From assembly GCF_056746865.1 (NCBI RefSeq), contig NZ_CM163382.1: 64,000 nucleotides of DNA. One strand, written 5' to 3'. Below, piece by piece: positions 52,437-53,813 of the stretch (positions within the stretch are counted from its first letter, which is position 1; the number at the start of each line of letters is the position of its first letter). The notes beneath the pieces are model-generated. The model saw only the letters and a program-made list of their open reading frames with translations, was not told the DNA's origin and made no database searches. The position numbers were made by a program, and so were the translations under genes.

Positions 52437-52658
52437 GTTAAATGTTAGTGGCTGTTATAGGGCGGCCACTATCGTTTTAGGTTCTGAGTGTAATGGTGAT
52501 TAAGTATCAGAATGATTACATTAATAACTAGCGGAAAAATTAGGCAGTTATTATGATCTAAATGTATGTTGGTGATTTTTCATCCTGTCATAGTTGATTC
52601 GCATAAGGCTTTAGAGTATCGTTATTAACCTAATAATTTATAAGTAGAAGTATTAACA

Positions 52659-53468
52659 ATGAAAGTTCAATTGTATAAATTCACGGAAGATAAAAATAAA
52701 ACCCTTACCTTCAGGTGGACGAAAAAACACTTTGAGTTTTGTATGGATAATAAAATCTTTTTAAATCATAAGGGGAAGAAGTCGTATAAAGAAAGAAATT
52801 TATTTCTTTTCTCAAAAGGTGACAAGATAACAATTGAAGATAATGTTATTGCTGAAGAATATTCAACAATGCCTGTAAAAAATTTCTCCAGTGTCGGCGC
52901 TTTTTCATTCCCGACCTGTCATTTTACAGGGAATATACATATAGGTCGATTTTGTAGTATTGCATCAAATGTAAAAATAATGGGAGGAAATCATCCTTTG
53001 AATCGTTTTACTACTCACATGATGACTTATAACGGTGAATTTGATAAGTTTGCTAAGAGTGAGTTTGAACGTAGCTGGACATTGAAACCATTCATTACCA
53101 AACCTGAAAATCCGATTATAGGAAATGATGTCTGGATAGGAAATGATGTTGTACTGAAAGGTGGCATCGCAATAGGTGATGGTGCTGTTATTGCTGCCAA
53201 TTCCGTTGTTACCAAAGATGTGCCCCCATATGCCATAGTTGCAGGAGTTCCTGCAAAAATAATCAGATTTAGATTTGATTCAAATGTTATTGATGAATTG
53301 TTGAGAATAAAGTGGTGGAATTATAATTACTCAGATCTTCCGGATAATAACAAATGTGATGATATAAATTATTTTGTTGAAGAGATGAATCGATTGATAT
53401 CAAATGGAAATATTCAAGAGATGGACTATAAAAAATTCAATCTTTCTGAGATATTTAGAGACCTATAA
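52659..53468 (+). CDS. Hexapeptide-repeat acetyltransferase of the XAT family (streptogramin A acetyltransferase Vat / CatB-like) with N- and C-terminal extensions, 269 aa
   Basis: AT-rich ORF with no K-12 counterpart that I recognise; core IGRFCSIA...GGNHPLNRF...IGNDVWIGNDVV...IGDGAVIAANSVVTKDVPPYAIVAGVPAKIIRFRFD...IKWWNY aligns by eye with remembered Vat(D)/CatB motifs; true start uncertain (weak RBS, alternative ATGs at 52743 and 52869). Confidence 0.75.
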   Translation: MKVQLYKFTEDKNKTLTFRWTKKHFEFCMDNKIFLNHKGKKSYKERNLFLFSKGDKITIEDNVIAEEYSTMPVKNFSSVGAFSFPTCHFTGNIHIGRFCSIASNVKIMGGNHPLNRFTTHMMTYNGEFDKFAKSEFERSWTLKPFITKPENPIIGNDVWIGNDVVLKGGIAIGDGAVIAANSVVTKDVPPYAIVAGVPAKIIRFRFDSNVIDELLRIKWWNYNYSDLPDNNKCDDINYFVEEMNRLISNGNIQEMDYKKFNLSEIFRDL

Positions 53469-53813
53469 TTATCTGTTCTGCATGATAAATGGGCAAGATA
53501 ACCAGTTCGGGGTTTGCAATTTCAATGGGACAGCGTCATCAAGGAGGTTGCAATCATCCTGCCATGCATATACTTTACGCCATCTTTTTATATTTACTTT
53601 ATTCCCTGAAAGTATAAAGCATTTATAGACTCCCGCGCGTCTAAAGTATTGATGATAGAAAAATGTGAAAACAAGGTTCCCTTTGAATCAGTAAGCTGTC
53701 TGTATAGACGACAGGAGGGGGATGTTTTCTACTTATTTCAATGTAGATGTCAGGAAAAAGAAGTAAATATTAAGGATAATGTTGTAAACCTGGAGAGTAT
53801 GAGATGATCTTGC

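Follow-up and report, generated by a model that had tools for sequence, protein, structure and literature searches.

An open reading frame (ORF) at positions 52659..53468 of a 64,000-nucleotide stretch of contig NZ_CM163382.1 (assembly GCF_056746865.1), here called the window and belonging to an Escherichia coli chromosome, encodes a predicted hexapeptide-repeat acetyltransferase of the XAT class, related to CatB and Vat. A preliminary description of the ORF had listed three candidate ATG start codons and a lysine-rich N-terminal extension, and had left open both the true start and whether the extension is an extra domain or a leader. Comparison with homologues places the start almost certainly at the first ATG of the ORF, position 52659. 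We put at roughly 85% the probability that translation from this codon gives a cytoplasmic, acetyl-CoA-dependent acetyltransferase of 269 amino acids, predicted to be of the XAT class, in which the lysine-rich extension is a translated and conserved part.

The coding sequence is complete, with 269 codons and a stop, and its product equals WP_000867994.1; this and all other features given below lie on the plus strand unless stated otherwise. The in-frame ATG codons named earlier, at 52659, 52743 and 52869, are all present in the ORF. An in-frame TAA (52641..52643), 18 nt upstream of the first of them, shuts the frame on the 5' side, and the ATG at 52659..52661 (Met1) is the sole ATG between this stop and a conserved motif that begins with FRW. 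The second (52743..52745) and third (52869..52871) are codons 29 and 71 of the same frame. Codon 5, a TTG at 52671, is formally a fourth candidate, and no further start codon precedes the conserved motif; the TTG is not common to the homologous loci of Citrobacter or Cedecea.

The strength of the Shine-Dalgarno (SD) sequence was computed as the duplex energy between the 20 nt upstream of each ATG and the 3' end of 16S rRNA. The values were -2.4, -2.2 and -1.0 kcal/mol for 52659, 52743 and 52869, respectively, in agreement with the earlier remark that no strong SD precedes any of them, and the third ATG has the weakest. The best upstream element is a weak SD-like AGAAG at 52646..52650, spaced 8 nt from the first ATG, and the Providencia homologue carries TAAGAAG at a similar position before its start. 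As a reference we used 47 annotated genes around the locus, taken from a genome that is identical over the region, for which the median duplex energy was -5.9 kcal/mol. Seven of the 47 (15%), among them hrpA, tehA, ydcR and pqqU, were as weak as -2.4 kcal/mol or weaker, and because equal weakness is found in this share of the neighbouring genes, the SD at 52659 is not evidence against the start. RNA folding around the start codon is weak (-5.5 kcal/mol vs a background of -7.8 +/- 3.0).

Homologues of 253-278 amino acids were collected by database search from Citrobacter, Cedecea, Kluyvera, Providencia, Pectobacterium, Dickeya, Brenneria, Rahnella and other genera (one Pectobacterium homologue, P0048, has no contig on record). 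An alignment of 35 homologues at 38-80% identity, referred to below as A1, formed the basis of the residue-level comparison. Such an alignment had been proposed as a check in the preliminary description, and it shows the extension to be conserved and resolves the start to 52659. Among Enterobacterales homologues, conservation of residues 18-37 (FRWTKKHxEFCxDNxIFLxH) extends down to about 46% overall identity; in the window this conserved core of the extension reads FRWTKKHFEFCMDNKIFLNH (52710..52769). The motif begins upstream of the second ATG, and within it W20 and L35 are nearly invariant. Met1 and Lys2 line up in all homologues of 269 amino acids. The position of Met29 is not conserved as methionine, most homologues having L, A, Q, R, I or V instead, and Met71 is kept in most homologues and sits inside a conserved YSTMP motif in the first coil of the beta-helix.

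The nucleotide sequences of the homologous loci lead to the same codon. The ATG at 52659 is the sole start codon common to the E. coli, Citrobacter and Cedecea loci: the Citrobacter locus has an aligned ATG at codon 1, and in Cedecea the codons between 1 and 71, codon 29 among them, include no start codon. In the Rahnella homologue the aligned ATG precedes FRW by 6 codons; a GAGGAG SD (-8.5 kcal/mol) stands before this ATG, and a stop codon lies 3 nt upstream of it. The start annotated by RefSeq/PGAP is likewise the position equivalent to 52659. A plain comparison of upstream with downstream DNA identity between genera did not discriminate, giving 0.57-0.70 everywhere, values that are inflated by gapped short AT-rich segments.

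The substitution pattern was considered at two distances. Across genera, codons 18-28 show a proportion of non-synonymous differences (pN) of 0.09-0.12 where the synonymous proportion (pS) is saturated, and the ratio of non-synonymous to synonymous rates (dN/dS) is 0.08-0.13 over codons 29-70 and about 0.1 over the core as a whole. Within E. coli, the alleles differ over the whole gene by 15 synonymous and 7 non-synonymous changes, none of the latter being in the first 89 codons, where all six differences (codons 6, 19, 46, 73, 84 and 87) are synonymous, including both that fall within codons 1-28. The 222 nt of upstream non-coding DNA differ between the same alleles by 12 substitutions and a 13-nt indel (52545-52557).

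Initiation at the second ATG would give a protein of 241 amino acids with an N-terminus of the size seen in Vat, only about 5 residues longer than that of VatD, and would turn 52659-52742 into an untranslated leader. Its SD is about as weak as that of the first ATG, and a single database homologue (P0022, 241 aa) is called at the position equivalent to Met29. This homologue, however, is cut by a contig end, and its frame beyond the called start reads YKFTEPGAKNYVFRWTKKHYEFC, so that the call is an artefact. The FRWTKKHxEFC stretch, which lies upstream of Met29, is conserved as protein, with the low pN and saturated pS given above; Met29 itself is not conserved and has no start codon counterpart in Cedecea; the strong SD of Rahnella stands before the upstream start; and both changes in E. 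coli codons 1-28 are synonymous. We regard a start at this codon as improbable. The in-frame TAA, the conserved motif at residues 18-37, the behaviour of Met29 and Met71 in the alignment, the loci of other genera, the substitution pattern and the artefactual origin of the P0022 call together assign the start to 52659, and the ambiguity noted earlier was apparent and not real. Initiation at this codon would proceed through the weak AGAAG element and a very AT-rich, unstructured initiation region in place of a strong SD, with the ATGs at 52743 and 52869 presumably encoding internal methionines. The comparisons thus show what is predicted to be a complete XAT-type enzyme of 269 amino acids read from 52659, with its putative catalytic histidine intact and under purifying selection.

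The XAT- or Vat-like identity first proposed for the ORF was borne out by several kinds of evidence. The protein contains matches to the Pfam family Hexapep, and searches against PDB sequences returned VatD, VatA, CatB, ApmA and PaXAT with E-values of 2.5e-29 to 2e-19. An AlphaFold2 model with a predicted local distance difference test score (pLDDT) of 90.3 folds the hexapeptide repeats as a left-handed beta-helix. The codon at 52992..52994 specifies His112, which corresponds to the catalytic histidine of XAT enzymes; His112-Pro113 is invariant in the 35 aligned homologues, and His112 aligns to the N-H of the VatD stretch GANHRMDG in a phmmer search. In characterised XAT enzymes the catalytic histidine is His87 of VatA and His135 of ApmA, and the architecture with a histidine-bearing loop in the beta-helix has been described (PMC7885111). 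In our model the insert in the beta-helix that carries His112 also contains a helix at residues 128-136. Codons 208-269 (53280..53465) encode a C-terminal helical region with modelled helices at 208-217, 236-248 and 262-268, and this region is conserved within the subfamily (DLPDNxxCDDI...YKKFNL in A1). The left-handed beta-helix repeats, the histidine-bearing insert and the C-terminal helices expected for the class are thus found in the model. A pseudo-trimer of three copies joined by (GGGGS)6 linkers, modelled by AlphaFold2 from an alignment of 8 rows (A4), reached a pLDDT of 41.8 and a predicted template modelling score of 0.26, values too low for a reading of the homotrimer, with active sites between subunits, that is typical of the class, or of the order of the N-terminal tail within it.

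The Vat enzymes (VatD, 1KHR; VatA, 4HUR/4MYO) are the best matches both in sequence and by Foldseek, with an E-value of 2.5e-29 and 31-34% identity over about 165-195 residues, and share with this protein the left-handed beta-helix, the loop with the catalytic histidine, the C-terminal helices and a conserved WW motif. They have no counterpart of the strand and helix that make up the N-terminal module described below. In the phmmer alignment residues 61-230 correspond to residues 28-192 of VatD (209 aa). The excess length over Vat of about 60 amino acids, noted at first inspection, resolves against VatD into an N-terminal part of 33 residues, a C-terminal part of 22 and 5 internal residues; the alignment stops at VatD residue 192 of 209, and the C-terminal tail is indeed longer than that of VatD.

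Scores against the curated NCBIfam models fell below the cut-offs in each case: 125.5 bits for the Vat equivalog NF000311 (cut-off 300), 105.7 bits for the CatB equivalog NF000490 (cut-off 350) and 81 bits for the ApmA model NF000084 (cut-off 550). On these scores the protein is an uncharacterised relative of XAT enzymes and no recognised resistance enzyme. Relative to CatB and PaXAT (1XAT, 3EEV, 6MFK, 8J40) it has additional N- and C-terminal segments, and ApmA (7JM0, 7UUJ), an aminocyclitol N-acetyltransferase, has an N-terminal region of its own (residues 1-82) that is unrelated to the extension described here. The polysialic acid O-acetyltransferases NeuO and OatWY (3JQY, 2WLC) are also hexapeptide acetyltransferases, and NeuO, as the present gene appears to be, is carried on mobile DNA in E. 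coli, being encoded by a prophage (PMC3046976). They belong to another subfamily, and the match to them is distant, being limited to residues 149-204 with an E-value of 3e-10. Phase variation of the NeuO type was considered and set aside, as inspection by eye, with no tandem-repeat tool run, revealed nothing beyond A5-6 runs, and hence no repeat tract, in the codons for the N-terminus. RefSeq/PGAP names the product 'CatB-related O-acetyltransferase' (269 aa), both for the window (WP_000867994.1) and for strain 55989 (WP_000867987.1). We found no literature on WP_000867994 or WP_000867987, and the product name occurs in passing in three papers that, by their titles and abstracts, deal with other subjects.

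The gene lies in an AT-rich accessory island of 1.36 kb (52439..53793, not assigned to a strand), delimited by composition profile and junction alignment, which is situated between patD and yncL. The GC content of the island is 27-39%, compared with about 53% in the flanks. In K-12 MG1655, which lacks the island, the patD-yncL spacer is just 96 nt; the island stands in place of about 19 nt of that spacer, with its right-hand anchor at 53794. Of 5426 complete E. coli genomes, 1150-1155 (~21%) carry the acetyltransferase gene, nearly always at the patD-yncL site. Two main alleles can be distinguished, one in 186 genomes with at least 99% identity to the window and the other in 962 genomes in the 95-99% band, of which the allele of strain 55989 is an example; the examples listed from this band are ~97.3% identical to the window, which places the alleles ~2.7% apart.

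Such a setting could also suit a silent or decaying remnant of horizontal acquisition, whose lysine richness would be a by-product of a GC content of about 29%. Besides the AT-rich island itself, decayed copies occur in E. coli: IS1 is inserted within the gene (SLK172, AR_0374) or between the gene and yncL, a 1-nt deletion affects codon 72 in NZ_CP139182 (locus L013), and one E. coli protein record (P0003) has an internal deletion of 30 amino acids. All homologue loci examined are AT-rich, most so at the 5' end, and neither literature nor expression data were found. Nevertheless, the window carries an unbroken ORF, and in nearly all listed carrier genomes, too, the annotated coding sequence is intact. 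The excess of synonymous over non-synonymous changes between alleles, with no non-synonymous change in the first 89 codons, the core dN/dS of about 0.1 across genera and the invariant catalytic histidine all argue against decay. We therefore hold this explanation to be no more probable than a start at the second ATG.

The lysine richness of the extension, as reported in the preliminary description, is real: lysine accounts for 21.7% of residues 1-60, compared with 6.2% of residues 61-269. The net charge is +9 over residues 1-56 and -5 over the remainder of the protein. An argument that the lysine richness is independent of base composition does not hold, as every homologue locus examined is AT-rich at its 5' end. 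The first 150 nt have a GC content of 27-32% throughout, even in the Rahnella gene, which has 44% GC overall. Because AT-rich 5' ends are common to all loci examined, the lysine content, the base composition and the structure-poor initiation region are inseparable.

The extension can be divided into two parts. Codons 1-17 (52659..52709) encode a variable tail of the form MKxxL[FY]xFxE... that is weakly constrained and that the proteins of Pectobacterium, Rahnella and Dickeya lack or have in a shorter form. Over these codons dN/dS is 0.29 for the window vs Cedecea and about 1.0 for Citrobacter vs Cedecea, and cannot be calculated for the window vs Citrobacter, where pS is saturated; a single synonymous difference, at codon 6, separates the E. 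coli alleles. In the AlphaFold2 model the tail spans about 14 residues before the first strand, and residues 1-10 have a pLDDT of about 60. The tail is followed by a strand (residues 15-19) and a helix (residues 22-30), predicted with pLDDT values of 81-93 and running into the first strands of the beta-helix at about residue 56. Distant relatives at 38-43% identity (the metagenomic P0071, P0073 and P0079, and proteins of Mammaliicoccus and Campylobacter) differ in residues and keep the pattern, namely a hydrophobic strand, a helix and I-[YF]-L.

Leader peptides and attenuators are known for inducible cat and erm genes, and a signal peptide, membrane anchor, leader peptide or attenuator that stands outside the mature enzyme was considered as a further explanation of the extension. 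The strongly basic N-terminus would be in keeping with it, given the charge of +9 over residues 1-56 and of +3 to +11 in Enterobacterales homologues, and a basic surface could favour association with a membrane or a polyanion. Against it, the extension has no hydrophobic core; it is a strand and helix rich in K, E, D and N, joined to the beta-helix, modelled at the high pLDDT given above and always contiguous with the enzyme core. The upstream region was likewise searched for regulatory elements. No Rfam element was found there at E <= 1, no excess of RNA structure was detected in 52475-52700 (fold z = 0.03), and no conserved small ORF was found upstream, the small ORFs present being chance-like; one of 11 codons (52562-52597, translated by hand) has 2 synonymous and 2 non-synonymous changes between alleles. 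The idea of a leader peptide or attenuator was rejected on these grounds. With no hydrophobic core, no attenuator and no Rfam element, the extension is not a leader or signal peptide, and we give a function of this kind slightly less credence than the two explanations above.

A start at the third ATG, with everything upstream non-coding, is scarcely credible: Met71 is present in most homologues, but it is internal to YSTMP, residues 61-70 upstream of it align to residues 28-37 of VatD in the first helix coil, residues ~56-66 form the first predicted strands of the beta-helix, dN/dS is low over codons 29-70, its SD is the weakest of the three, and the outcome is the opposite of the non-coding upstream sequence named in the preliminary description, as the DNA upstream of either internal ATG shows conservation at the protein level.

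With translation from 52659, the choice first offered between an extra domain and a leader falls away: the extension is neither, although it is a real, translated N-terminal extension in which a strand and a helix follow a variable tail. Among 1.84 billion representative proteins, 26 were matched by a profile built from residues 1-56 (A2). In the full-length ones examined the module lies N-terminal to an XAT-like core; most of the other matches are short partial sequences, and the module was not seen alone or on another fold among the 26. The same profile gave no match to PDB sequences at E <= 10, ApmA included. Since it is small, tightly joined to the core and only seen on XAT-like proteins, the extension is a subfamily-specific N-terminal element and not an independent domain. 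One metagenome-derived match, P0132 (1081 aa), carries the N-terminal module and an XAT-like core followed by two ATP-grasp regions, with matches to GARS_A, ATP-grasp_3 and CPSase_L_D2 at residues 378-604 and 720-832. The ATP-grasp fusion gives a hint that an amino-acid- or peptide-like metabolite may be the substrate of some subfamily members.

As to the role of the module, it is conceivable, though we would put it at somewhat below even odds, that the strand and helix form a cap over the N-terminal end of the beta-helix and contribute to the lining of the acceptor site between subunits. Packing of this kind would direct the subfamily to an acceptor different from chloramphenicol and streptogramin A, and the conserved positive charge might favour an anionic one. 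An analogy may be drawn with ApmA, in which an N-terminal addition, unrelated to the present one, reshapes the XAT pocket (PMC7885111). The further proposal that the N-terminal module and the extended C-terminus mark a distinct XAT subfamily with a pocket remodelled for a new acceptor, possibly an antibiotic of a class new to XAT enzymes, is speculative and in our judgement unlikely. Nothing that we found points to a new mechanism, and the acetyltransferase is best described, as far as sequence comparison goes, as an uncharacterised subfamily within the known XAT class.

These results have practical consequences. The annotated start at 52659 is trustworthy, and expression constructs should retain the first 37 residues, since trimming to the size of Vat deletes a conserved structural element. 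The authors of the ApmA study set ApmA apart from other XAT enzymes by its additional N-terminal region (PMC7885111). Taken together with the subfamily described here, this shows that N-terminal additions have apparently been gained at least twice among XAT enzymes. As the addition in ApmA altered its substrate class, the present enzyme, being widespread in E. coli, is a reasonable candidate of low priority for substrate screening. If the reading of a new acceptor were true and that acceptor were an antibiotic, a latent chromosomal resistance gene would be present in about one fifth of complete E. coli genomes and in several other genera of Enterobacterales.

Upstream of the gene, a terminator-like hairpin (52446..52471) is located directly after patD in island-specific sequence, and consequently the acetyltransferase gene would need its own promoter within 52472-52658. 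The sequence immediately 3' of patD differs between island carriers and K-12. A consensus scan identified a well-placed promoter-like TTTAGA-16-AATAAT at 52610..52637; the scan returned 7 sites vs 7.2 expected by chance. There is thus weak evidence for this promoter candidate, which, if used, would make 52659 the first ATG behind a 5' untranslated region of ~15-20 nt. A motif G-n-TTTAGAGTATC-n-TTA, recognised by eye, is common to E. coli (window 52607-52637) and Citrobacter (locus L002, ~2942-2970). It lies ~45-50 nt before the start codon, overlaps TTTAGA-16-AATAAT and may be a promoter or an operator.

The gene order around the locus is ydcV - patD (ydcW) - ORF 52659..53468 (+) - yncL (-) - ortT - ydcY - ydcZ - mnaT. 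In other genera the homologues are solitary genes in neighbourhoods that are unrelated from genus to genus (loci L002-L009). The neighbours are colicin and immunity genes in Cedecea, and in Providencia DarT/NADAR together with a GT52 glycosyltransferase; the Dickeya homologue lies near an Sf6-type terminase and that of Rahnella near chemoreceptor genes. The GC content of the homologues is 9-14 points below that of the flanks in four of the five genera sampled, the exception being Providencia, whose flanks are equally AT-rich. The solitary homologues, their unrelated neighbours and the low GC content suggest that the acetyltransferase is a horizontally mobile accessory gene. A further protein, P0026 (244 aa), is the same as the Citrobacter protein for ~160 residues and then continues with a C-terminus that differs from the Citrobacter one and resembles Vat; faulty assembly into a chimera, or recombination, is the probable cause.

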